Shown here: in pieces, positions 6,504-63,055 of the stretch
Layout: each line of letters opens with the position of its first letter
Position numbering within the stretch: the stretch's first letter is position 1
Source of the DNA: an uncultured Candidatus Binatia bacterium
GTDB taxonomy: Bacteria; Desulfobacterota; Binatia; UBA9968; JAJDTQ01
Assembly: GCA_965213675.1 (NCBI GenBank)
Contig: OZ243916.1
Span: 2,432,001-2,496,000 of the forward strand
Reading direction: 5' to 3'
Length of the DNA stretch: 64,000 nt
Position numbers and translations under genes: made by a program
The notes under the pieces: generated by a model
What the model was told of the DNA's origin: nothing
Databases searched by the model: none
Seen by the model: only the letters and a program-made list of their open reading frames with translations

Positions 6504-6565
6504 CCGACCCTACTTGACCTATTAAAGAGACTATACTACATAAAAATTATTTGGGATCAATCCTA

Positions 6566-6859
6566 TTGAGGATCATTGCCAAACGTGCTCTGAGGGAGTT
6601 CTGGCAGCGTTATCCGGACGCTGAGAGTTGGCTTCGCGCATGGTACGACCAAGTCAGGCGAGCGGACTGGGATTCACCCGCCAGCATACGACGGGAACAC
6701 CCTCGCGCGAGCATCGTCGGGAGTGACCGAGTCGTCTTCAGGTTCAAAGGGAACGAATATCGAATGATCGTCAGGGTATTTTACCCGGGGCGTCTCATCT
6801 ACATACGGTTTATCGGCACCCACACCGAATATGACCGTGTCAATGTGGAGGAGGTGTAA
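6566..6859 (+). CDS. higB: HigB (RelE-superfamily) toxin
   Basis: (M)RIIAKRALREFW...RVVFRFKGNEYRMIV...IRFIGTHTEYD; start probably TTG 6566 (track start 6551). Confidence 0.88.
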   Translation: MRIIAKRALREFWQRYPDAESWLRAWYDQVRRADWDSPASIRREHPRASIVGSDRVVFRFKGNEYRMIVRVFYPGRLIYIRFIGTHTEYDRVNVEEV

Positions 6860-6860
6860 C

Positions 6861-8099
6861 ATGGCCAGCATCAAGCCAATCCGCACCGAAGGGGATTACG
6901 AAGCAGCTCTTGCTCGGATCGACGAGCTTATGGATGCCTTGTCGGGTCCGGAGGGGCAGGTGGAGGATGCCGACGACCCGGACAGGGTCGAGCTCGATGT
7001 CCTCACCGATCTGGTGGAGTTCTACGAGGAACGGCATCACCCCGTCAGTCTTCCCAGCGCCGTCGCCGCCATCGAGTATCGCATGGACCAGCAAGGCCTG
7101 ACACAGCGCGACCTCATACCCCACATCGGGAGCCGCAGCAAAGTCGCGGAGGTCCTGTCGGGCAAGCGGGACATCACCATGTCGATGGCACGCGCACTCA
7201 ACCGACATTTGAACATCCCTGCCGATGTGTTGCTCCAGAAGCCGGGCAGTAACCTGGATGCCGCGTTCAATGATCTGGCGCCGCGCCGATTTCCACTCAA
7301 GGAGATGGCCAAGCGGGGATGGATTCCGGAATTGCCTGACTTGGCCGACCGGGCCGAAGAGTTGATCGGCGGGTTGATTCATCGAGCGGGAGGGTTCGCC
7401 GCCGTCCCGCTGTACCGCAAGAACGACAACCGTCGAGTCAACGCCAAGACCAACGAATACGCGCTCAAGGCATGGTGCTGGCATGTAATGGCCTCGGCCA
7501 ACGAGCGCAAGTCAGAGGTCCCCTACGAGCCCGGTGTCGTCACTATGGACTTTCTCCGCCGTGTCGCACAGTTCAGCCCCCATGAAGACGGCCCCCTCCA
7601 GGCAAGGGACTTCCTGAGAGAGCACGGCATCGGCATCGAATTTGTGCGGCACCTGCCGAGAACCTATCTTGACGGCGCTGCATTGCGGCTCGCCAGCGGT
7701 AGGCCAGTCATAGGACTGACGCTACGCTACGACCGCATCGACAACTTCTGGTTCTGCCTGATGCACGAACTGGCCCACGTTGGGCTGCACCTTGACGGCA
7801 ATGAAGACGACTCCTTCATCGATGACCTGACACTCCGGGACACGGTCGGCGCGACGGACCCGACAGAAACGCAGGCCGACCAATGGGCCGAAGAAGCGTT
7901 CATCCCGCTCGACGTTTGGAAAACAACCGAGGTTCGGAAGCATCCCACGCCTTTCGCCGTCATGAGTCTGGCGAATGCTTCGCAGATTCATCCAGCCATC
8001 GTCGCAGGCAGAATTCGGCATGAACGGCAGAATTACCGGCTGTTGTCGCAGTTCGTCGGCACGGGCAAGGTACGGAGACAGTTGGGTGCAACAGCATGA
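6861..8099 (+). CDS. HigA-type HTH antitoxin fused to an ImmA/IrrE (DUF955) Zn-metallopeptidase
   Basis: IKPIRTEGDYEAALARI HigA N-terminus, XRE HTH GLTQRDL...SKVAEVLSGKR, LTLRYDRIDNFWFCLMHELAH (HExxH), ETQADQWA. Confidence 0.88.
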   Translation: MASIKPIRTEGDYEAALARIDELMDALSGPEGQVEDADDPDRVELDVLTDLVEFYEERHHPVSLPSAVAAIEYRMDQQGLTQRDLIPHIGSRSKVAEVLSGKRDITMSMARALNRHLNIPADVLLQKPGSNLDAAFNDLAPRRFPLKEMAKRGWIPELPDLADRAEELIGGLIHRAGGFAAVPLYRKNDNRRVNAKTNEYALKAWCWHVMASANERKSEVPYEPGVVTMDFLRRVAQFSPHEDGPLQARDFLREHGIGIEFVRHLPRTYLDGAALRLASGRPVIGLTLRYDRIDNFWFCLMHELAHVGLHLDGNEDDSFIDDLTLRDTVGATDPTETQADQWAEEAFIPLDVWKTTEVRKHPTPFAVMSLANASQIHPAIVAGRIRHERQNYRLLSQFVGTGKVRRQLGATA

Positions 8100-8781: not shown

Positions 8782-9116
8782 TCAAGCCGTCGCCAAGACG
8801 TGGGAGAGAGCCTTCCTGACGGCGCGAGCGTCCCACGCCGACAACGCGCCGATCCTGCGAACGATCAGACCGTCATCGACGGTGAAGAGCTTGAACCGAA
8901 CCTTGCAGGGGACATTGAGGCCCACTTCTTGCCAATCCTGAAGCGCCACGTCGCTCGGCCAGGGACACTCACCGAGGTAATCATGGCCGCGATCGATTGC
9001 TCGTGAGCGGCGTTGGAGTCCGCCGAAGAGACGACCAGAGCCGGCCGGCGCTTGCTGGTCTGGCGGTCCGTGAAGGGGAAAGGGACAACGATCACGTCGA
9101 ACGCGTCAAAGGTCAC
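8782..9116 (-). pseudogene. PemK/MazF-family toxin, frameshifted near 8960-8970
   Basis: VPFPFTDRQTSKRRPALVVS...AMITS, then continues in another frame as WPSDVALQDWQEVGLNVPCKVRFKLFTVD...LATA* (TGA at 8784-8782). Confidence 0.8.
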
Positions 9117-9330
9117 GCCACGCTTCCTCGTCCTCTGGAGAGACCCATTCGCTGAGAACTCCGGAGAGGCCCTTCAGGTAGTCGTCCTCTGCCGGAATGA
9201 CCTTGCGAACCACGACATGATCAGCCGCGATCTCGAAAGTGATCAGGTCACCCTCCCGGAGGTTCGCCGCTTGGCGGATCTTCTTGGGAATGGTCGTCTT
9301 CCCGCGTGAGGTAATCCTGGCGAGTTCCAT
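9106..9330 (-). CDS. AbrB/MazE-family antitoxin
   Basis: MELARITSRGKTTIPKKIRQAANLREGD...EWVSPEDEEAWRDL; overlaps toxin start. Confidence 0.85.
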   Translation of the reverse strand: MELARITSRGKTTIPKKIRQAANLREGDLITFEIAADHVVVRKVIPAEDDYLKGLSGVLSEWVSPEDEEAWRDL

Positions 9331-9440
9331 TTTCCTGCCTCCCAATATTCGGAAAATAAGTAATACAGAAATGCAGCGCAACCATGGGCTACCATCCCGG
9401 TCCGGACTCCCATGGTTGACCGGCTCGCTCCGCTTCCCCT

Positions 9441-50001: not shown

Positions 50002-50286
50002 TCATTCCGCGGGGATCTCCACGATCACGTCGCCCAACACCTTGGCGACGCAGCCCAACCGGTCGGCGTCGTCGGATTCGAGCATGGACAGGGTGAGTTC
50101 TTCGTTGTCGTCCATGGGGCTCAGGTTGTTCAGGCCGGCGAGGATCTTCACCTTGTCGGTGCCACAGATGGCCTCGGTGCAGTCGTGGCGCAGGGTCACG
50201 CCGTTGCGGATGGCGGCCACCAGGATGGTGGTGCCATCGTCGACCTCGAAGCTCTGTCCCAAGGGCATGAAAGTGACTCTTGGCAT
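50002..50286 (-). CDS. [2Fe-2S] ferredoxin with third Cys replaced by Asp
   Basis: HDCTEAICGTD...RLGC. Confidence 0.82.
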   Translation of the reverse strand: MPRVTFMPLGQSFEVDDGTTILVAAIRNGVTLRHDCTEAICGTDKVKILAGLNNLSPMDDNEELTLSMLESDDADRLGCVAKVLGDVIVEIPAE

Positions 50287-50544
50287 GGCGGGGTTGTAGG
50301 AGACGCTTGCCGGGTTGTCAAGTTAAGCCCCATGCGTCCCGCGCCCGATCAGGCGTCTCACGACGTTCCCGCACGGGCGGGTTTTACGACTCCAGGTTCT
50401 TGAGGCGCCTGGTACACCGTCCTTGAACGCCGTTCCGTCCGCACCGATCAGGGCGTGACCTGATCTTTGTCGGACGGCAGTGATATCTCCTTGCCCATGC
50501 CGTCGGTGCGCCTTACCCCTTGTCGTTCAGGAGCCAATGCGTGG

Positions 50545-52296
50545 TCATCGACTGCCTCGCCGGTCATCGAAATACTCGACAAGCGCTGACCGGCCGACGA
50601 TTTCGACGATCCGTACGCGCAATCTGGTCCCCTCGGCGTCGGTCAATTGCAGTTCCTCGCCGGGGATGAATTGGACCGGCTGTTGTTTGCCCTCGTCGAT
50701 CACGATGTTCGACGCATAGAGATAAGTCCGGTCAAGATTATCGCGGATGGGATTCAGCCTGCCCTTCAATCCTGGCAGGTTACCGGTCCCCTCTGGAATA
50801 ATTACGCTCCCGCCCTCCGGCAAGGCATCCAGATTGATCGCAAGTGCCCGCTCACTCGGTGTCCAATCCTGCTCCAGATGCGCGGCCTGTCCGGGCGCGG
50901 ACGCGAACACGGTCATGGGCAGCGTTGTCGTGTGCAGATCGACCGCCGCCTCACCTTGTTCGTCCGTGGTGGCGCGTATCCAGGTCTTGTTCGGAAAAAG
51001 CACGAGGAGATCGGTGCCCGGCAAGGGCTGGCCCCCGGAACGCACCGAGATGACGGCCCGGGCAGGACTTCGTTCCTGCATCGCTGCGGGAATGACAAGA
51101 AGGACCTCCGAATCGTCGACGACCCGGTAATTTGGATATTTGCCGCACAACTCCCATGTTTCGCGTTGGATAATGAGGACACCGTCGCCGCGGCGCTCCA
51201 TGAAGTAACGCCTGTCTCCGCCGCCACGGGTCCCGCCGACAGGCATCCGCGCCAAAACGCAGGTCAGGGCCTCGTTGCGGGTCGACTGCCGCGAGCCCAT
51301 GCTCTCCACGGTCAGGTTGTTGGGCAAGGAGCCGGGCGATTGGATCTCCAGGCGATCATCGAACATTGACAAGCGAATCTTGCTTCCCCTTATGGAATAG
51401 TCGCGGTGGACCACTGCGTTGACCAATGCCTCGAACACGGCTCTTTCGCTATACTGGGGCAGATCCGAACGGGCCGGATCCTTCCGTGCCGCGACCTGCA
51501 TGTTCCTAACGGCGAACGCAACCGCGCCGGCGATCTGTTCGTTCAGCGGGCCGGTGATCTCCTGCGCATCGATCTGGCCGGATGCACGGTCTTGGCCCCG
51601 GTATCTGGTCGCCGTGATGCAGGCGTTGGGAAGCCATTGTTCCGGATTCGGAGTGCACAACAACACTCCGGCGACAGTGGCGCGAAGAACCCCAGCCTCG
51701 TCGTCAACCAGGAGCGCCAATTTTTCGAGCGCCGCCTCAGGTTCGGCCGCGCCCTCGGCGCTCAGCAACGGTTTCCAGAGCGCCTCGACCAATGTCCTGA
51801 ATCCGGTGTCCGGCACCGGTTGCTTGTCGAACCACAGAAAGCGGGCCTGCGACCGCCGTTGCGCCAGGCGCAACCGCTCGTCGCCCCCCATAAGTCGCTT
51901 TGAGGCGCCCACACGGATGTAATTCCCGCCGGGGCTCTCATGCACGGAATCACTCTCCGGCACTTCGGCCAGCAGCACCAACCTGCCGTCGGACAGTTCG
52001 GTGTGATGTGTGCGGATGCGAACGGGCGGCTTGATCGTATCGGTGCTCACCTCGACCAGAAGGGCATCCAGGTTAGCGATCTGCGCGCGCGACATGCCGA
52101 TGATCTTGCCGTCGTCGGCAACGCCGGCGAGCACTACGCCTCCGGCGGCGTTGGCGAAGGCCGCGATTTCGTCGGCCCAGGCGCCGCGGGTCGGTCGTCT
52201 CGGACGATCACCAGCGAACTCGACCTGCTTGAACTCCCAGCCGCTGTCTTCGCCCGCCCGCAACCGGCTTTCGATATCCTCGACGCGGTAGTTCAT
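50545..52296 (-). CDS. Schlafen/AlbA_2 plus HATPase_c_4 (RecG C-terminal-like) protein with extra beta-rich C-terminal domain
   Basis: GEDSGWEFK, IAAFANAAGG, EALVNAVVHRDY, LEIQSPGSLP, RN, MERRGDG; about 170-aa beta-rich tail. Confidence 0.85.
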   Translation of the reverse strand: MNYRVEDIESRLRAGEDSGWEFKQVEFAGDRPRRPTRGAWADEIAAFANAAGGVVLAGVADDGKIIGMSRAQIANLDALLVEVSTDTIKPPVRIRTHHTELSDGRLVLLAEVPESDSVHESPGGNYIRVGASKRLMGGDERLRLAQRRSQARFLWFDKQPVPDTGFRTLVEALWKPLLSAEGAAEPEAALEKLALLVDDEAGVLRATVAGVLLCTPNPEQWLPNACITATRYRGQDRASGQIDAQEITGPLNEQIAGAVAFAVRNMQVAARKDPARSDLPQYSERAVFEALVNAVVHRDYSIRGSKIRLSMFDDRLEIQSPGSLPNNLTVESMGSRQSTRNEALTCVLARMPVGGTRGGGDRRYFMERRGDGVLIIQRETWELCGKYPNYRVVDDSEVLLVIPAAMQERSPARAVISVRSGGQPLPGTDLLVLFPNKTWIRATTDEQGEAAVDLHTTTLPMTVFASAPGQAAHLEQDWTPSERALAINLDALPEGGSVIIPEGTGNLPGLKGRLNPIRDNLDRTYLYASNIVIDEGKQQPVQFIPGEELQLTDAEGTRLRVRIVEIVGRSALVEYFDDRRGSR

Positions 52297-52819
52297 CTCT
52301 CTAAAATTCCAGCGACCCTTGCAGGTCCCCACGTGTGTCGTGAATTGCTGTCGCCTGACGGGTCCGTTCCGACCATACCGCGATCAGGCCGTCATAGGAG
52401 GCCTCCAGGCGTTCCTCCTCTTGTTGACACAACGGACCCCCGATCTTTCCAAACACGTACAACATACTGGTTTATTGGCGTTTTCTTCAGATGCATCTCA
52501 AGCCGTCGTCGTCACCGTAAGCGAATCGCAAGCGGTTTGAATACCACAACGGCGTCAATCAGCGTGTGCCCGAACCTGCCCCCAATAAGACCCCCATTAG
52601 AACCCGATTGAACCCCCATTGGACCCCAATCGCTGCAACGAGCCCTACTAGGTTTCTCCCGATCGGATTCCGTCATAGCTGGCCAGATCCGTCAAAACTG
52701 CCGATCCTGACATCCTCCCGGTCACTCAGCTTCCCCTTCAGACGATGTCTGTTGGCTAAGACCATCGTGCTCAAAGACCAAAAACGTTACGTGGCTTCGA
52801 ATCAGGTTACAAGATTCGC

Positions 52820-53070
52820 GGCGTAGCGGGTTGTCGTCAGGCTCGCCTTCAGCGCGGCCAGTGTCGCCGCTGCTTTGCCTCCGGGGGAGACCTTGATGTG
52901 AATGTTGCTGCGCTGGAGAACTCCGCCTATGTCGGAGTCGTTCCTCGCGCCGGAGCGCAGGCGCTTAATGGTAGTCGCCTTGTTTCCGAAGGCTTCGAGA
53001 AAGGCGAAAGGGAACTCGGCGGCTCCAGCGCAAGAGCCGAAATGGCCTCTTCTATCTCAACGGCTTTCAT
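52820..53070 (-). pseudogene. N-terminal remnant of an MmeI-like (type IIL) restriction-methyltransferase
   Basis: MKAVEIEEAISALALEP, frameshift, then AEFPFAFLEAFGNKATTIKRLRSGARNDSDIGGVLQRSNIHI...LAALKAS, then stop; not in the ORF track. Confidence 0.72.
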
Positions 53071-53182
53071 TGGTCATCACAGAGCACAGACAGCCAGTCG
53101 GCTACGCTGACGCAACTCCAACCCACCGGCTCAGACGTCGCAACAGACGCCGAAACCGTTGGGTGATTTATCCCACCTTGCA

Positions 53183-55081
53183 TCACCCCGCCACGTCTGG
53201 GATGGCATCGTCAACCGTCTCATCCGGCACGTCCACTTCAGGCTCGTTGGTCGCCTCACCGCCATAGACAGTTTGACCGGTGGCTTCTTCAATCAGTCCA
53301 AGCAGGGCCGCTTGGCGTGCATGACAAAAGCCTTCGAAGTCGTCTGCCCGAAGTAGTTCCGGATCGATCAGATGCGTCCGCAGGAAACCGTCGATGTCGG
53401 CGGCAGGAATCGGCGGCGAGCCAACTCCACCGCGTTCGAGGCGCGCCAAATACTCTGAGGGCGCCGCGCCACCCAGCATGCGGTTGGTGCGGGCCGTTAG
53501 CGGCGTTTTGTTGATGATCGAATCATAAACGTCCGGGGATTTCCCCTTTCGTCGGCACCAATCGCGCGGGAAAACATGATGGATGTCGACACTCTCTTCG
53601 AAGAAAACCGTCTGGTCAAAGTCCTGGCTGGACCGGAAATCCCTGGCACCCTTGGCCATGAGCAGGGCGTTGATGCCCTTGTAGGCGGCTGACAGCCGGG
53701 TGCGCATAGTACGAAGGCGATCGACTCGGAAGATCGGATCCTCCATGGTCGAGGGGGAATCTCCACCGGCAAGCCAAATCGGCACCTCGACAATATCTCT
53801 GGCGATTCGAGACTCCACGGCTGAACCGTAGAGTTCGCCGAACACGCCACACCAGTACCAGCGTGCAATGCGTGCGCGAGTCTCGGCGTTTTCCCACAGG
53901 TCGCCAATGGTCATGAGGATCGCGGCGAGCGGCACAAATTGGCTCTGGTAAGGGAGGTCCTGGACCCGATAAATCCGCTGCATTCGCAAGAACTTCACCG
54001 CCGTCTCGAAACCCTTCTCAACGGGGTCGGCGTGCAATTTGTACGCATCGAGCGGCAGGTTGAGCAGGGACTGGCGTGTGGCACTGACCGATGGCAGATC
54101 GTGACGTCCCGGATCCTCGGCAGACCGCTCAACGCGCACGTCGCGCGTGTGGATCAGCGAGATTGCCTGTAGAAAATCGGTCGGGGCGATCTTCTCAAGA
54201 AGGCCATAGTCCTGGTCGGCTGCACGCCCGAAGGTGGAAAGGCGGTTCTTGCGACCCGATCCAGCGCTTTCGCCCAACCAGTCCTTGCGCAACTCAAAGC
54301 CTTGGGCCGAATACATCGCGGTCACCAACTCGAACGCGTCGAGAGGCTTGCCGCCGGTGTTGACCTTCTCGAAGACCAAACAGACGGCCTCGCGCGACGT
54401 GTCTTTAGCGAGTTCGATCACGGGGACTTGGTAGTTCTTGAAGTTCTGTAAGACCTCGTCCTTGAAACGCTTGAATAGTTCACGCTTTTCGGCTCTCCCG
54501 CGCGCGATCCAGTAGTCGCCGAAGCCGTCCTGCCAAGCGTCCCAGTCGAACGCTTGGTTGACCGGGAACATCCCCTCTCTGTACTCGGACTCATGTGAAG
54601 AGAGATCCAGGAGAACAGTGCGGCCAAAGTCTGCCCGTTGAATGCGATCCTCGGGGACTCCGACCACAGCGTCCTCGCGGTTGCGCTGTGGATCAAGCGC
54701 CGCTTCGATGTCGAGGTAGAACCAGCGTTTCACCTTCTTGTGCCGCGCCGTGACCGTTTCCACGATACGCTGCCGCATGCAGGTCTGATAGAGGGAGGTC
54801 ATGCGCTGCTGTCCGTCCAGCAGCAGATGACGCGCTGCATGTGTTTCCGCGTCGTCTGGAGCCCCCTGTATCGGTCGAGCCTTGAATTCGACCGTTCCCC
54901 CGGTCTCGAGGGTCATCAAGGCCCCCACAGGGAAGGCCAAGGAGACGGAGGTAATCAGGCTGCGGATGCGTTCTTCGTCCCAGACCCAGCTTCTCTGGAA
55001 GTCCGGAAGTTTGATGGTCCCGCGCTGACAGTCGCGCAAGAGTTCCTCAAGGCGTACAGGATTTGTCGTAAAGCTCGCCAT
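53183..55081 (-). CDS. DUF262 (GmrSD-like) protein with C-terminal HNH-like domain
   Basis: LPDFQRSWVW, LLDGQQR, FEKVNTGG, DIHHVFP...INKTPL..TN. Confidence 0.88.
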   Translation of the reverse strand: MASFTTNPVRLEELLRDCQRGTIKLPDFQRSWVWDEERIRSLITSVSLAFPVGALMTLETGGTVEFKARPIQGAPDDAETHAARHLLLDGQQRMTSLYQTCMRQRIVETVTARHKKVKRWFYLDIEAALDPQRNREDAVVGVPEDRIQRADFGRTVLLDLSSHESEYREGMFPVNQAFDWDAWQDGFGDYWIARGRAEKRELFKRFKDEVLQNFKNYQVPVIELAKDTSREAVCLVFEKVNTGGKPLDAFELVTAMYSAQGFELRKDWLGESAGSGRKNRLSTFGRAADQDYGLLEKIAPTDFLQAISLIHTRDVRVERSAEDPGRHDLPSVSATRQSLLNLPLDAYKLHADPVEKGFETAVKFLRMQRIYRVQDLPYQSQFVPLAAILMTIGDLWENAETRARIARWYWCGVFGELYGSAVESRIARDIVEVPIWLAGGDSPSTMEDPIFRVDRLRTMRTRLSAAYKGINALLMAKGARDFRSSQDFDQTVFFEESVDIHHVFPRDWCRRKGKSPDVYDSIINKTPLTARTNRMLGGAAPSEYLARLERGGVGSPPIPAADIDGFLRTHLIDPELLRADDFEGFCHARQAALLGLIEEATGQTVYGGEATNEPEVDVPDETVDDAIPDVAG

Positions 55082-55220
55082 CCGATGGTTCCTCATACAG
55101 CGCGCGTCTGAACGGACTACGTGCCGAATCGACCCGAAAGTTCTCGAGAGTCCCCCATCAACGTAGACTCGAAGAGGCCTACCTATACTGCCTCGACACC
55201 GGTCAGGAAGACAACATTCT

Positions 55221-55946: not shown

Positions 55947-56222
55947 GCCTGAGGGCCTCTCCGTGTCGTCGCGAATTTACCGCGAGGCATGGGGATGGTC
56001 CGTACAGGGGCCGCCGGCGGTCTTGCCAGGGCGTGCCCAAGGGCGGCCAGCGGTCGCCTCTGCACAGACAGACTCGTAGACTAGCAGCGCCGAAGCGACC
56101 TTGGCAACGCGTGCCGGGTCTGCCACATTCCCCGGAGGATGCCGGTCTTGCCTGGTGGCAGCGGCAGCTCGGCGAAGCGTGATCGAACGAACTTCACACG
56201 GCGGCTCCTTGAAGTTGACCTC

Positions 56223-59200
56223 ATGAAAATAGTTCTCGGCCCTTGGCACCCGCACCTTGAAGACGCCCTGGCGGATGAAATCCGCCAGCGGCGCGCGTGC
56301 GACCGCCTCGCCCCGCTGCTGTTGGTGGTGCCGTCCGATACGTTGCGCCGGCGCATCGAGGTCCTGCTGGCGCAAGAGCACAACCTCCACCTCTTGAACT
56401 TCGAACTGCTCACCTTCTCCCAACTCAGCCTGAGGCTCTACCAGGAGACCCACGGCGCGGTGGAACCGACGCGGCGGAGCGGGACCTTTATGGAAGAGGC
56501 CCTGAAGCGCGTGATTCCGGCTCAAGGCCGCTTCGCGGGCATTGCGGACAACGATGGCGCGTGTGCGGCGCTGTGGCAGACCCTGCGGGACCTCAAGGAC
56601 GCCGGGGTGGATCCCGATGCGGCCCTGGATGCGCTGCGGGAAGGGCTGTTCGCGAACCGCCACGTTTCCGCTCCGCATGACGACTTCCGGGAAGAACGCG
56701 GGGCGTCACGGGAAGGGCGTATCGGCAACCGCGATCACGACTCCCTGCAGGCTCTCTTCGAATTGCACCGCGAGGTGCAGCGCCGCTTTCCCGAATGGGA
56801 CGCACGCGACCGCCAGGACCTCGACGCCCAGGTCGTGCCGCTGGCGCCGCTCTCACGCTGGCTCGGGCAATTCGAACGCATCTACTACTACGGATTCTAC
56901 GACCTGACCCAGACCCAGTTGGACTTGTTGCGGAGCGTCGCCAGCGCCTGGCCCGTCACGCTGTTCTACCCGCTTGTCCGGGCGGACGCGGACTGGTCCT
57001 TCGCCGAAACATTCTTCGATCAATACTTGGTGGGACTGGCCGGGGCAGACGAAATCGTGGACCTGATCGGCGGCGTTGCCGCGACGGGGGACGACGCCGA
57101 AGCCGCGTCGCCGGCCGACACGGAACACGACGCGCCCGACGGCGGCGAACCCACCGCGCTCCGGGCAGGCAGCCACCCGGCCCGGGACAGCCGGCGCGGC
57201 CGGGCGCCCCGCCGCGAGGAGCTCAGTTGCGCCAGTCCGCGCGACGAGGTGCGCACCGCGGCCAAGCTGATCCTCGGGCTGGTGGAAGAAGAGGGCTTCC
57301 AATGGAGCCGGGTGGGCGTGACCGCGCGCACCCTGGATGGCTATCTTCCCTGGATCCGGGAGATCTTGCCCGCCCACGGCATCCCCTTCCACACGCCGGC
57401 GCGGGAGTCGCTGGCCCGGTCCCAGGGGGTGCGCGGCCTGCTGGCGCTGCTGGAACTGCCGGTGCGCGACTACCCGCGCGCCGGGGTCATCGATCTCCTG
57501 GCGTCCCACCGCTTCAACTTCAAGGCCGTGCTCGGACCCCAAGCCCACGCCCGGCCTGACCTGTGGGACGTGGCCACGCGGCTCCTGGGCATCGGGCGCG
57601 GCATGAGCGAATGGCGCCGGCTGGAGCGCTTCGGCGACACCGGGCTGGCGTACCGGCGCGAGCACGACGAGGACACGGACCAGCCCCGGCGCATCAAGGC
57701 CGAGGACATCCGCGCGCTGCTGCAGGCCGTGGAGGCGTTGCATGCGGAATTGAGCGCGCTGCCGCCGCACGGCGCGTGGTCGGAACTCGCGGGGCGCTGC
57801 CGCGCGCTCATGGACCGCTTCCTGGTACCCGTTTGGGACGAACGGGAACGGGGCATGACAGGCGCCATCGACAGCGTCCTGGACGAGCTGGCCGATCTGG
57901 ACCGCGTCGCCGCCCGCGTGGCGCTCCCGGCGTTTGCGGTGGCCCTGCGCAAGGGCCTGGAGCGGAGCTCGGTGCCGATCATAGGCCAAGCCGAGACCGG
58001 CGTCGCCGTGCTGGACGCCACCGCCGCCCGCGGTCTCCCCTTCGATGCCCTCTTTGTGCTGGGGATGAACGAGGGGACGTTCCCCCGCGCCATTCGCGAG
58101 GACCCCTTTCTTCCCGACCGCGCCCGGAACGTGTTCCAGACCGCACTAGGCTACAAGGTCGCTTCGAAGCTTGCGGGATACGACGAAGAGCGGCTCCTGT
58201 TCGCGCTGCTCACCAGCGCGGCGGCCAAACGCCTCTACTGCACCTGGCCGCGCGAGGACGCAGGGGAACGCGTGCTGGCGCGGTCGTGGTACCTGGAGCC
58301 GGACCGGCTGGAACCGGACGGCCCGAACGCGATCAGCACGGACGTGGCCACGCAGGTATTGCCGAAGAGCCTTCTGGGCCGAAACCCGCCGGCCCCCTTC
58401 GACCAGGACCGTTGGCTCCTGCCCGAAGAGTTGGCGGTACGCCGGGCGCTTTCGGGAAAGGACCCGCGCCCGCCCCTGCGCGCGGCCGGCGTCTCCATGG
58501 ACAGCTTCGAACGAAGCCTGAACGCGGTCCGCGCGCTGGAGGACAGCCGCGGCGCGCCGGGACCGTTCGACGGCGACACCGGCCCGCTGGTCGAAGCCTG
58601 GGCGGACGTGCTCAAGCGCGGCGTGTCGCCCTCGATGCTGGAGGCCTACGGGCGCTGCCCGTTCCAGTACTTCGCCAGCCGCGTGCTCCGCCTGGAACGG
58701 TTGGAGCGTCCGGAAGGCAAGGCGCCGGTGGGAGCCCTGGAATTGGGCGCGCTCTGTCACGAGATCCTGGAAGGCTTTTACGAAGACGCCGAGCAAGCCC
58801 TCCGGTCGGACTGGCGCGAGCGATTGGACCGCGTTGCCGCCCGAGTCCTGTCCGGCTTCGCGGAACGCAACCCCACGGGCTATCCCGCGGCGTGGGAGGT
58901 GGCCAAGGAAGAACTCGTGGACCTGCTGCGGCGGGAGGTCGAGGCGGATCGGCAGGCAATGAACGAACAGGGCTTCCGCCCCGTAGCGCTCGAACTGGAG
59001 CGAAGCGTGGACCTGGCCGCGGCGCTCGATACGGACTGGCCGGAACAGCTCCGGCACATCCGCCTTCAAGGACGGCTGGACCGCGTCGACTACAGCGAAG
59101 CCGACGGCCGTTACCGGATCGTGGACTACAAGTACAAGAGCGGCCGAAAGCCTAAGCCCGTGGACCAAGACCCCGCGCGCTCCGCGATCCGCGGGGAAAG

Positions 59201-59570
59201 GCTGCAACTGCCCCTCTACGTGCTGCTGGCGACCGGCCACCGGGACCACCGGCTCAACGTGCCTGCCACGGCCCAAGTGGACGCGGCCTGGCACTTTTTC
59301 GGTCCCCGTTGGGAAGACGGGCCGCTGTCCACCCGGGAGTTCGAGGGGCAGTCGTGGCGGGAGGCTGTGGGAGAACAGATTCGGGACACGATGACGCGCC
59401 TGCTGACGGGTGTGCGGGCGGGAGCGTTTCCCATGGTGCCCGGCGAGTATTGCGATCATTGCCAGGTATCGGAGATCTGCCGAGCGAAGCACCTTCCATC
59501 GGCCATGCGCGCGCGGCGGCATCCCACGGCGGAAGCGTTGACGCAGATGCGGAAGGCCAAGCCTGTTTAG
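56223..59570 (+). CDS. addB: AddB-like subunit: inactive helicase plus PD-(D/E)XK nuclease with Fe-S staple
   Basis: GFYDLT, LGMNEGTFP, RCPFQYF, GRLDRVD, IVDYK, LQLPLY, CDHC.....C. Confidence 0.85.
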   Translation: MKIVLGPWHPHLEDALADEIRQRRACDRLAPLLLVVPSDTLRRRIEVLLAQEHNLHLLNFELLTFSQLSLRLYQETHGAVEPTRRSGTFMEEALKRVIPAQGRFAGIADNDGACAALWQTLRDLKDAGVDPDAALDALREGLFANRHVSAPHDDFREERGASREGRIGNRDHDSLQALFELHREVQRRFPEWDARDRQDLDAQVVPLAPLSRWLGQFERIYYYGFYDLTQTQLDLLRSVASAWPVTLFYPLVRADADWSFAETFFDQYLVGLAGADEIVDLIGGVAATGDDAEAASPADTEHDAPDGGEPTALRAGSHPARDSRRGRAPRREELSCASPRDEVRTAAKLILGLVEEEGFQWSRVGVTARTLDGYLPWIREILPAHGIPFHTPARESLARSQGVRGLLALLELPVRDYPRAGVIDLLASHRFNFKAVLGPQAHARPDLWDVATRLLGIGRGMSEWRRLERFGDTGLAYRREHDEDTDQPRRIKAEDIRALLQAVEALHAELSALPPHGAWSELAGRCRALMDRFLVPVWDERERGMTGAIDSVLDELADLDRVAARVALPAFAVALRKGLERSSVPIIGQAETGVAVLDATAARGLPFDALFVLGMNEGTFPRAIREDPFLPDRARNVFQTALGYKVASKLAGYDEERLLFALLTSAAAKRLYCTWPREDAGERVLARSWYLEPDRLEPDGPNAISTDVATQVLPKSLLGRNPPAPFDQDRWLLPEELAVRRALSGKDPRPPLRAAGVSMDSFERSLNAVRALEDSRGAPGPFDGDTGPLVEAWADVLKRGVSPSMLEAYGRCPFQYFASRVLRLERLERPEGKAPVGALELGALCHEILEGFYEDAEQALRSDWRERLDRVAARVLSGFAERNPTGYPAAWEVAKEELVDLLRREVEADRQAMNEQGFRPVALELERSVDLAAALDTDWPEQLRHIRLQGRLDRVDYSEADGRYRIVDYKYKSGRKPKPVDQDPARSAIRGERLQLPLYVLLATGHRDHRLNVPATAQVDAAWHFFGPRWEDGPLSTREFEGQSWREAVGEQIRDTMTRLLTGVRAGAFPMVPGEYCDHCQVSEICRAKHLPSAMRARRHPTAEALTQMRKAKPV

Positions 59571-59581
59571 AAGGACCGGCC

Positions 59582-62500
59582 ATGATGCTTCCGCCCCCGG
59601 ACGATCACGAAAGACGCGCCGCCACCACCACCTTCGACCGCAACGTGGTGGTGACCGCGGGCGCGGGCACCGGCAAGACGACGCTCCTGGTGGAGCGTTG
59701 CGTCAACCTGCTGATTCGCGAGCCCGCGCCGTTGAAGGTGACCGACTTGGTGGCGCTGACCTTTACCAACAAGGCCGCCAACGAGATGAAGGCGCGCCTG
59801 CGCGAGCGCCTGGAAGATCTCGCCGGGGACAACGCGGCGCTGGTGTCCGAGCGCTCCGGGGTCGATGCGGAGCCGGCGTTCGAAGACTCCGGGGTCGATG
59901 ACCTGGAAGCGTTCCGGCGGCGCTACGAAATCACGCGCGACGACGTGGGCAAGCGCGCCGGCGAGGCGCTTCAACACCTGGAACGCGCTCACATCGGCAC
60001 CATTCACCATTTTACGGCCTCGCTGCTCCGGCTCTACCCGCTGGAGTCCGGACTGGACCCCGGGTTCCGGGACGGCGACGAACGGCTGCTGAAGGGACAC
60101 TTCGACAACGCCTGGGCACTTTGGCTCGACGGCGAGCTGTCGAGCACGGGTCCCCGGACCGGCGAGTGGAAGCAAGCCCTCGCCCGCTTCCCCCTGGATC
60201 AGCTCGGCGCCCTCGCGCGGCAACTGTGCGCGGAAGACGTGGACCTGGATCGGCTCCAGAGTGCCGGCGCCGGGGACGCCACCCACCCAGATCTCCGGGG
60301 ATGGCTGAGGTGGCTGAATGCCACGGCCAGAGACCTCGCCGAACGTTATCCACCGCCCGGCGCGAACGCGCTGGAGAAGGCGCTGCACGTGGCGGTGAAC
60401 ATCGTGAGGGCGGCGGCCAGCGGCAGCGCCACGCCGACCGCGGACGAACTCCGGCTGCTGGAGGCCAACATCAGCCATCGTCCCAAGGATTGGGACCCGG
60501 AGGACCACGAACGCGCGCGGGAACTCATCGCCGACGCCCGCCGACTGGCCGCGGTGGACCCGCAGGAACTGGCGCGTCTGTGCGCCTTGCTGGCGCCCTT
60601 CGCCCGGGAGACCCGCGCGGACCTGGCCCGCAAGGGGCTGGTGACCTTCGACGGCCTGCTGGTGCGCGCCCGGGACCTGCTGCGCGACCACCCGCGCATC
60701 CGGGAGGACCTGAAGGACCGATTCAAGGCCGTCCTGGTGGACGAGTTCCAAGACACCGATCCGCTCCAGTACGAGATCCTGCTGTGGCTGTGCGAGGAAC
60801 GCAGGCAACGCGCCGGTCACTGGCGCGACATACGTCTTGCCCCGGGCAAGCTGTTCGTGGTGGGGGACCCCAAGCAATCCATCTACGGTTTTCGCGGCGC
60901 CGACATCGAAGCCTACCTGAAAGTGGTGCAGGAAGTGATCGCGCACCAGGACGGAGCGCAACACCCCCTCACCGCCAACTTCAGAAGCGACCCCCGGATT
61001 CTGGAAGTCGTGAACGACATCTTCGGGCGGCTGATCGAGGAAAAGGCCGGCCTCCAGCCCGAATACACCGGCCTTCAGCCGGGAATCCAGCGACCAGCCG
61101 GAACGCCGGGTCCGGAACGAGACCGCCCGCCGGTGCGGGTGCGCCGGGTCACGACGGCAGGGAAATTGAACGCGGAACAGGCGCGCCGGGTGGAAGCGGA
61201 ATCCCTGGCCCGCTGGCTCGACGAGGAGGTGCTGGGGGGCCGGACCCTCGTGCGTGATCCGAACGGTAAGGAAATACCTGCCGAGCCAGGGCACGTGGCC
61301 TTTCTCTTTCGCGGCCTCACCAACGTGGCCATCTATCTGGAGGCGCTTCGCCGTCGCGGCATCGGCTACGTGGTGACGGGCGAACGGAGCTTCTTCGACG
61401 CCCCGGAGATCCAGGGCGTGGTGAATCTGCTGCGGGCCATCGACAACCCCCACGACCGGCTGGCGCTGGTGGGTGTGCTGCGCTCGCCGTTGGGCGGACA
61501 CGACGACACCGAGATCTACGCCCTCGCCCGCAATCGCCTGCTGGACTACCGCGCCGCGACGTGGGCCACCGGCGCGGACCTTCCCGGCACGACTCGGGAC
61601 CTGTATGAACGGCTTCTCAAGTTGCACCAGGAGGCCCGGTTCCTGGAAGCCGGACAAGCGGTAGCGCTCGTTTTACGGGAACTGCCGCTGTCCGTTTTGG
61701 CGGCGAGCACGGGGGCGGGCGCACAGGCCGTGGCCAATATCGAGAAAGTCCGCCTCGTGGCCGAGGAGACCGGCGCCGACGGTAGCGGCACGCTGAAGGA
61801 CGTGGTCGCCGAACTGGAACGGCGCATGCTGGAGCGCGAGCCCGAGTCCGAGAGCCCCTTGGCAGAGGAGGGTCTGGACGCCGTGCGCATCATGAGCATC
61901 CACGCGGCCAAGGGCCTGGAATTTCCCATCATGGTGTTGGCCGATGTCCTGGCGGTGACCGGAAGAGGCGGGCGGGAGGACGTGCACATACAACGGGATT
62001 GGGCCACCGGTCTCACGGGCTTCCGTGTCGGCGACCTGTGGAATCTCCCGGGCGTCTACATCGAGGGGAAACGGCGCCAGCGGAATGAGGCCGAACGCCG
62101 CCGCATCCTCTACGTGGCCATGACCCGGCCGCGGGAACAGTTGGTGATATCGTTCGCGAACCAGGGCGACGGAAAGGCTCGGAGCGACAGCCTGCTGGCC
62201 CTGATCGAGGAGGGCGCCAAGGCCGAACTGACCCACGCCGGCCACGAGGACCATCCCATCGTCGTCCCAACCGGCGTGGGAGAGATGGAAATCGAAGTGG
62301 TCGTGGAGCAGCCGGAAGCCCTTGGCGACAGCCGCTACGAGGAGAATCAGGCCGCGGATGCCGATGACGGGTCGGGGTTCAAGGATATGTGGCACCGGCG
62401 GCGCGAAGTCTGGGAAGAACGCAATCAACAGATCGTGTTCCGCTCGCCGACGGGGTCCAAGCCCGCGGGGGAGGCTGCCGAAGCCGAAGCGAAACGCCGG

Positions 62501-63055
62501 CCCGCCCGGCGGCGGTCCGGAGCCCGCGACCTCGATCGCGACACCGCGCTCAAGCTCGGCGTCGTGGCGCACAGCGTGCTCGAACACTGGGACTTCCAGA
62601 CAACGCGCGTCGCGGAGGACCTCGACGACGCCATCGCCCTGCACACAGCCGCCCTCCCGACCGAGGAGCGCGCGATTGTCGTCCGTGAACTGAAGAACAT
62701 CTGGCCCATCTTCACGGAGTCCGCGGTCTACGACGAGCTTCGCACCGCCCGCATCGTGGGTCGTGAAATGCCCTTCCTCATGCCCTGGAACGGGCAACAG
62801 ATCATGGAGGGGCGGATCGACCTCGTCTACGAGCGCGACGGGCGGCTCTACGTAGCCGATTACAAGACCGACCGGCTCACCGCCGAGGAAATCGGCCAGG
62901 CCATGAGCCAGTACGAACACCAGGCGTCGGTCTACAGCGAAGCCGTCCGGCGCGGCCTGGAGCGGGATGTGGCCGCCTTCCGGCTGATCCTGTTGCGGCT
63001 TGGCCGGGCCGTGGAGGTGCCGCTGAAGGCCAACGGCGGCAGCGACGTGCCGTGA
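59582..63055 (+). CDS. addA: AddA-like UvrD helicase-nuclease
   Basis: AGAGTGKT, TFTNKAANEM, VDEFQDT, VGDPKQSIYGFRGAD, HAAKGLEF, YVAMTR, GRIDL...DYKT. Confidence 0.9.
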   Translation: MMLPPPDDHERRAATTTFDRNVVVTAGAGTGKTTLLVERCVNLLIREPAPLKVTDLVALTFTNKAANEMKARLRERLEDLAGDNAALVSERSGVDAEPAFEDSGVDDLEAFRRRYEITRDDVGKRAGEALQHLERAHIGTIHHFTASLLRLYPLESGLDPGFRDGDERLLKGHFDNAWALWLDGELSSTGPRTGEWKQALARFPLDQLGALARQLCAEDVDLDRLQSAGAGDATHPDLRGWLRWLNATARDLAERYPPPGANALEKALHVAVNIVRAAASGSATPTADELRLLEANISHRPKDWDPEDHERARELIADARRLAAVDPQELARLCALLAPFARETRADLARKGLVTFDGLLVRARDLLRDHPRIREDLKDRFKAVLVDEFQDTDPLQYEILLWLCEERRQRAGHWRDIRLAPGKLFVVGDPKQSIYGFRGADIEAYLKVVQEVIAHQDGAQHPLTANFRSDPRILEVVNDIFGRLIEEKAGLQPEYTGLQPGIQRPAGTPGPERDRPPVRVRRVTTAGKLNAEQARRVEAESLARWLDEEVLGGRTLVRDPNGKEIPAEPGHVAFLFRGLTNVAIYLEALRRRGIGYVVTGERSFFDAPEIQGVVNLLRAIDNPHDRLALVGVLRSPLGGHDDTEIYALARNRLLDYRAATWATGADLPGTTRDLYERLLKLHQEARFLEAGQAVALVLRELPLSVLAASTGAGAQAVANIEKVRLVAEETGADGSGTLKDVVAELERRMLEREPESESPLAEEGLDAVRIMSIHAAKGLEFPIMVLADVLAVTGRGGREDVHIQRDWATGLTGFRVGDLWNLPGVYIEGKRRQRNEAERRRILYVAMTRPREQLVISFANQGDGKARSDSLLALIEEGAKAELTHAGHEDHPIVVPTGVGEMEIEVVVEQPEALGDSRYEENQAADADDGSGFKDMWHRRREVWEERNQQIVFRSPTGSKPAGEAAEAEAKRRPARRRSGARDLDRDTALKLGVVAHSVLEHWDFQTTRVAEDLDDAIALHTAALPTEERAIVVRELKNIWPIFTESAVYDELRTARIVGREMPFLMPWNGQQIMEGRIDLVYERDGRLYVADYKTDRLTAEEIGQAMSQYEHQASVYSEAVRRGLERDVAAFRLILLRLGRAVEVPLKANGGSDVP

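Follow-up and report, generated by a model that had tools for sequence, protein, structure and literature searches.

The Schlafen–GHKL gene and its protein

The stretch of 64,000 nt analyzed here (the window), from an uncultured Candidatus Binatia bacterium, encodes P0001, a 583-aa protein in which a Schlafen/AlbA_2 nuclease domain and a GHKL ATPase domain are followed by a tail of two all-β domains, D1 and D2. The gene likely has a role in defense. Its Schlafen–GHKL core is already known; the D1–D2 module and its fusion to Schlafen–GHKL are apparently undescribed, and a literature search of partial coverage, bioRxiv supplements excluded, returned no description of the module or of the P0001 architecture. 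The gene and its domains are:

50545..52296, minus strand: Schlafen–GHKL–D1–D2 gene (P0001), a single open reading frame running from 52296 to 50545, 583 aa, under purifying selection
51889..52251, minus strand: Schlafen/AlbA_2 nuclease domain (Pfam PF04326), residues 16-136, with triad and AAFAN box
51085..51432, minus strand: GHKL (Bergerat) ATPase core, residues 289-404 (Pfam PF13749 at 304-392), with E289-x3-N293, H297-R-D-Y and G370-x-G372
50821..51063, minus strand: D1, residues 412-492, predicted transthyretin-like/CarboxypepD_reg-type β-sandwich
50566..50820, minus strand: D2, residues 493-577, unnamed all-β domain, strongly conserved

An alternative in-frame GTG at 52332 would give a protein of 595 aa, and the MNYR start is favored by close homologs. 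The initial annotation had read an AlbA_2 domain with an E-x4-E-x-K pattern and AFAN motif, and a central HATPase_c_4 region. Pfam recovers both: SLFN_AlbA_2 scores 64.5 bits (curated cut-off 25.3), with GEDSGWEFK forming the intact E16-x4-E21-x-K23 triad of the Ex4(E/D)xK pattern and AAFAN at residues 45-49 as the SAFAN-like box, and HATPase_c_4 scores 59.9 bits (cut-off 26). E289, N293, G370 and G372 are invariant across 46 aligned homologs, where the three GHKL motifs are invariant or nearly so. The ratio of nonsynonymous to synonymous substitution is 0.13-0.25 in all five regions of P0001 across 11 close genes, indicating purifying selection. As annotated, there is no signal peptide, nor is there a membrane segment (best 19-residue Kyte–Doolittle mean 1.3). 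The same genome carries four more GHKL (Schlatpase-like) paralog regions, all tail-less (C1 near 630000, 2190000 and 2711000; C14 near 14500).

The tail is a conserved two-domain β module

A structure model of the tail is consistent with the β-rich sequence and transthyretin-like first part described in the initial annotation. It predicts a two-domain all-β module (predicted local distance difference test score 96.5), with D1 adopting a prealbumin-like (transthyretin-like) β-sandwich fold. Residues 405-583 have no Pfam match, and D2 matches nothing in Pfam, PADLOC, NCBIfam or PHROGs. The CarboxypepD_reg family (PF13620) does not match P0001 and matches 37 of 150 module homologs, mostly below the cut-off. 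A known helix-turn-helix (HTH) or a fusion lacking homologs would have undone the earlier proposal, and both identities are ruled out: the tail model has no helix of four or more residues, and the module is conserved and spans at least 553 clusters when grouped at 50% identity.

In the alignment, several polar and aromatic residues of D2 are conserved (N515, D519, R523, Y525, Y527, N530 and Q539) and look like a binding surface. We rejected an FHA domain as the identity of D2, since profile homology with the GR and SxxH phosphothreonine motifs was not found. D2 weakly resembles the β core of HmuY, a family characterized by conserved His/Met heme ligands. HmuY proteins are twice the size of D2, and no His or Met column of D2 exceeds 25% in the alignment; the likeness may not reflect homology. 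In Supplementary Table 2 of Perez Taboada et al. (PMC13056530), an ‘HmuY-related’ domain is listed for six Schlafen proteins (group pSlfn23), a possible parallel to D2.

Relation to known Schlafen systems

In P0001 the GHKL domain directly follows the Schlafen domain, the pairing that Kuzmenko et al. (bioRxiv 10.64898/2026.05.29.728809) named the ‘Schlatpase’ supradomain and found in 58.6% of 103,533 prokaryotic Schlafens. In their RzAgo system, tetramer formation is driven by ATP bound at E314/N318 and restores the bilobed nuclease; this Schlatpase binds and hydrolyzes ATP, cleaves tRNA and is protective, with both sites required for defense. RzAgo, a SLFN-pAgo protein, shares with P0001 the SLFN (PF04326) and GHKL (PF13749) domains, Ex4(E/D)xK, a SAFAN-like box, E-x3-N, and exchange with restriction-modification (RM) operons. 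E289/N293 of P0001 correspond to E314/N318 by spacing only. The C-terminal partner differs, being an Argonaute core in RzAgo and the D1–D2 module in P0001. The PADLOC pAgo model (positions 60-444) covers only residues 43-412 of P0001, and a PAZ-MID-PIWI core was not found in its 583 aa.

A second comparison is with RorSlfn5 (pSlfn5), which senses phage through an Ig-like domain (Perez Taboada et al.). Both are Schlafen tRNase family proteins encoded by single genes and ending in a β-sandwich, as far as the tails can be compared by description; pSlfn5 lacks a GHKL domain and has an integrin-like Ig sensor, whereas in P0001 GHKL intervenes and D1 is transthyretin-like. Among the 55 architectures of Supplementary Table 2 of that study, we found no GHKL (His_Kinase_A)+Ig, transthyretin or CarboxypepD_reg form. 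The pSlfn1 and pSlfn2 groups (Schlafen–HisKinase with or without HTH) and PDB 3LMM resemble P0001 over the N-terminal 400 residues (3lmm, E = 2.6e-7). pSlfn2 ends in an HTH, whereas P0001 has none and carries a 170-aa β module.

The module is shared among unrelated effectors

Beyond Schlafen proteins, D1–D2 is a promiscuous module with a wider range of partners than the initial annotation had supposed. Pfam domains were counted on the best 150 of 553 cluster representatives. The module accompanies HATPase_c_4 in 28 of the 150, TIR/SEFIR in 12, AAA_14/DUF4143 in eight and a protein kinase in three. Caspase-like, trypsin-like and Schlafen (lacking GHKL) domains occur in two each, and PIN, M48, N6-methylase and HsdR_N domains in one each. 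Many of the others are only fragments, and gene decay may account for some of the unusual fusions. A second search with a TIR fusion as the query added Fic fusions and Big_2 lipoproteins. Compact TIR–D1–D2 proteins are found in Vibrio, Ahniella, Sulfurimonas, Microcystis and Cyanobium, and a PIN–D1–D2 protein in Aphanizomenon; the compact TIR proteins include WP_102313207.1 of Vibrio and WP_002733237.1 of Microcystis. A Sinorhizobium plasmid copy of the module is surrounded by TIR and AbiE genes.

D1–D2 also occurs as tandem repeats. One 695-aa protein from an ENA contig (P0210), possibly of eukaryotic origin, combines a kinase, a Thr/Ala-rich linker and two D1–D2 repeats. At L023:5364-8273 and in P0440 and P0174, a type I RM methyltransferase is fused in frame to (Schlafen–)GHKL–D1–D2; these fusions echo the RM–Schlatpase exchanges reported by Kuzmenko et al. 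and may be deletion products.

In a quick tree of 96 hand-labeled modules (1 of 97 was skipped), partner labels change 30 times against a minimum of 12, indicating that partners were swapped repeatedly. TIR accounts for 13 changes, and a TIR and a PIN module form a sister pair (Shimodaira–Hasegawa support 99). The distribution is patchy: the module occurs in nine of 201 genomes of the host class and in four of 400 genomes of the class of genome G203, itself included, with up to eight matches in one genome. Tails that are 76-91% identical occur in Binatia, Bryobacterales, Paracoccaceae and two gammaproteobacterial groups, a pattern that points to horizontal transfer.

Matches to defense genes are enriched beside module genes

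The neighborhoods of module carriers were compared at 74 non-redundant loci out of 97, with the window and loci L090, L092 and L093 left out and a PADLOC threshold of E ≤ 1e-10. Matches to defense genes are enriched next to the module: 35 of 120 adjacent genes match PADLOC, compared with 13 of 116 located at the same loci but at distances above 5 kb (Fisher p = 6e-4), where genes were called by a custom script, a match identifies a component and not a complete system, and the loci, being related, are not independent. Excluding ABC and ankyrin matches leaves 33 adjacent and 11 distant. Control genes in the window match PADLOC in six of 34 cases (34 of 40 were scored), or two after ABC and ankyrin removal.

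Three relatives of the P0001 gene (about 94% DNA identity; loci L001, L004 and L020) lie between hmaB and hmaC, and others adjoin RM genes; the P0001 copy itself is not located between hma genes. Payne et al. (10.1101/2024.01.29.577857) used hmaB–hmaC embedding to find new defenses, and seven of nine tested embedded candidates were defensive. P0001 neighbors a GmrSD gene resembling their HEC-05 and is not itself among HEC-01 to 09; ‘Schlafen’ and ‘AlbA’ are absent from the main text of that paper.

The gene sits in an islet at a genus defense hotspot

In the window, the P0001 gene belongs to a strain-specific islet with two other features:

50287..55220, no strand assigned: islet of about 4.9 kb between a 2Fe-2S ferredoxin gene and a metallo-β-lactamase-fold gene
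53183..55096, minus strand: intact GmrSD-like (DUF262) gene, 637 aa, with a DGQQR motif (Pfam GmrSD_N, 100 bits)
52802..53070, minus strand: remnant of about 270 bp from the 5' part of an MmeI-like (type IIL RM) gene, frameshifted and truncated (MmeI_N E = 4e-4, below the cut-off)

The initial annotation had placed P0001 downstream of GmrSD-like and MmeI-like genes. Both lie upstream of it on the same strand; the first is indeed an intact gene, with PADLOC matches to HEC-05, SspE and NsnA, and the second is only a remnant. The islet has a G+C content of about 0.59-0.62, compared with about 0.65-0.66 over most of the window.

We searched 27 relatives from the genus, of which 23 could be scored, counting by hand among the matches listed. 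The ferredoxin and metallo-β-lactamase-fold genes are less than 600 bp apart in 19 of the 23; in the remaining four they are separated by different inserts, 2-7 kb long. Three relatives (G169, G621 and G618) carry islet genes elsewhere at 93-94% DNA identity. Seven regions from relatives were chosen because an insert flanks the ferredoxin gene on one side or the other, and five of these contain defense matches: a DUF499-type cluster, a type II RM system with a ThsB-like TIR protein, a Ppl-like protein, a dCTP deaminase, and an NsnA/PD-T4-2-like protein. The islet site is a defense hotspot of the genus. The hotspot extends to both sides of the ferredoxin gene (window 50002-50286; loci L225-L231), and its contents include a DUF499-DUF3780-DUF1156-PLD helicase cluster, a Ppl-like gene with a Schlafen–GHKL gene, and a DUF262 pair flanked by duplicated ferredoxin genes.

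In G618 (L122:1-3577), the islet's GmrSD gene recurs at 94% DNA identity; next come an mmeI start fused to Type_ISP_C and then a different Schlafen–GHKL gene. The slot behind GmrSD and the mmeI start thus accepts interchangeable Schlafen genes.

Elsewhere, the window encodes HigB and a 412-aa HTH protein corresponding to PADLOC PD-Lambda-2 A and B (6551-8096; E = 8e-38 and 7e-132), a Phd–PIN toxin–antitoxin pair (371-1008), an orphan PrlF/MazE-type antitoxin (9109-9381), and an AddB-like and AddA-like helicase–nuclease pair (56139-63055).

A proposed mechanism and its alternatives

P0001 as a whole is best explained as a Schlatpase-type single-gene anti-phage effector gated by a ligand-binding D1–D2 tail, an explanation to which we give about an even chance. 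Protection against phage is by itself the safer claim and quite probable; for a tail that senses the trigger, the balance is again close to level. The motifs, the published RzAgo mechanism and the neighborhoods agree with the earlier proposal of a nuclease effector and ATPase-like switch in a defense setting. D1 would act as a rigid transthyretin-like stalk carrying D2, whose conserved surface would bind a ligand. Binding would license ATP-driven assembly of the GHKL domains, which would pair the Schlafen domains and lead to tRNA cleavage. For P0001, ATP-driven tetramers and tRNA cleavage are carried over by analogy with RzAgo. Since unrelated effectors share a conserved D2, which is also found outside the cell, its ligand is probably a conserved one available on either side of the membrane, for example a virion structural protein.

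Several observations weigh against this explanation, the first of them concerning whether the tail is needed. Among Schlatpases from five genomes (30 of 60 matches had loci), all 12 at ≥59% identity keep the tail, and six of ten of the same subfamily at 42-48% identity end right after GHKL, so the Schlafen–GHKL core can stand alone. As these nearest tail-less relatives stop directly after GHKL, no HTH gave way to the tail in the P0001 lineage. A Fic-like_C winged HTH follows the module in five proteins, four of which have GHKL on its N-terminal side; in proteins of the DUF4062–GHKL type, the module is situated between GHKL and the retained winged HTH. The initial annotation, which had the tail in place of a winged HTH, was therefore right that P0001 has no HTH, and its simple replacement is not borne out.

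The tail could instead be an adaptor, stabilizer or self-association module of a defense Schlatpase whose core itself senses infection, for example through nucleotide levels or DNA. TIR, caspase, kinase and Schlafen enzymes, all partners of the module, are typically activated by clustering, and the tandem repeats and tail-less relatives fit such a role. So does the report of Kuzmenko et al. that the other Schlatpases mostly carry nothing beyond the core or just an HTH. Retention of the tail in all 12 close copies under purifying selection argues against it, as does the apparent binding surface suggested by the D2 alignment, and we regard this alternative as rather unlikely.

A second group of adverse observations concerns the nuclease. 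Nine of the 46 aligned homologs and 22 of 113 close ones have a broken Schlafen triad, and the GHKL motif is kept in all 113. In the experiments of Perez Taboada et al., two of seven systems protected (the DUF262 and Ig-like fusions); HisKinase(GHKL) fusions tested in E. coli did not, and the tested members of the pSlfn1/pSlfn2 group showed no defense there. A DNA-binding ATPase or regulator, traveling as a passenger of RM operons with little or no nuclease role, would account for triad loss in about one fifth of homologs and for the non-protective GHKL fusions. It would also suit the source annotations, which read ‘putative DNA binding domain-containing protein’, and corresponds to the older label ‘RecG C-terminal / putative DNA-binding protein’. 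P0001, however, has no HTH, the triad is intact in it and in 37 of the 46 aligned homologs (about four fifths), and in RzAgo this domain combination has been proven to act as a tRNase switch (Kuzmenko et al.). We consider this reading very improbable.

The remaining adverse observations concern what the module detects. The Ig sensor of pSlfn5 diverges fast and D2 does the opposite, its mean identity of 0.59 (core 0.68) exceeding that of the Schlafen domain (0.51). A hydrophobic segment precedes the module in 22 of the 150 representatives, including a receptor layout of kinase, transmembrane segment and two D1–D2 copies, and some carriers are Big_2 lipoproteins with no effector. Such exported carriers show that the module is not defense-specific. 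Of the adjacent genes, 85 of 120 have no PADLOC match, and TIR-module genes at two loci adjoin a toxin–antitoxin pair within an aromatic-catabolism cluster. At these loci, in two gammaproteobacterial genomes (L117:7015-8821 and L118:8085-9887), TIR–D1–D2 lies directly behind a TacA–GNAT pair in a phenol hydroxylase/meta-cleavage cluster. The module might bind a conserved non-phage cue, such as a small hydrophobic molecule, an envelope fragment or a host-derived molecule, with the Schlafen enzyme switching the cell's response to stress or its dormancy, possibly in adaptation to host-associated life. We judge this unlikely.

Implications for Schlafen-based immunity

Schlafen–GHKL proteins are the majority of prokaryotic Schlafens, yet a trigger is known only for the Argonaute fusion, and plain versions were non-protective when tested. 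The P0001 family offers a candidate trigger module with natural pairs that have or lack the tail, which makes the proposal testable. It can be tested outside the uncultured host, because the module also occurs on compact TIR proteins of culturable Vibrio, Microcystis, Cyanobium and Sinorhizobium. If the tail is a sensor, it would be a new recognition domain common to at least eight enzyme types.

We speculate further, and more doubtfully, that D1–D2 is a pattern-recognition module of several phyla that binds one conserved ligand in both cytoplasmic effectors and surface or secreted proteins. Inside the cell, Schlafen–GHKL, TIR, PIN, Fic, kinase and protease effectors would carry the recognition domain; outside, receptor-like kinases, lipoproteins and secreted proteases would display it. 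Surface and cytoplasmic immunity would then share one domain.
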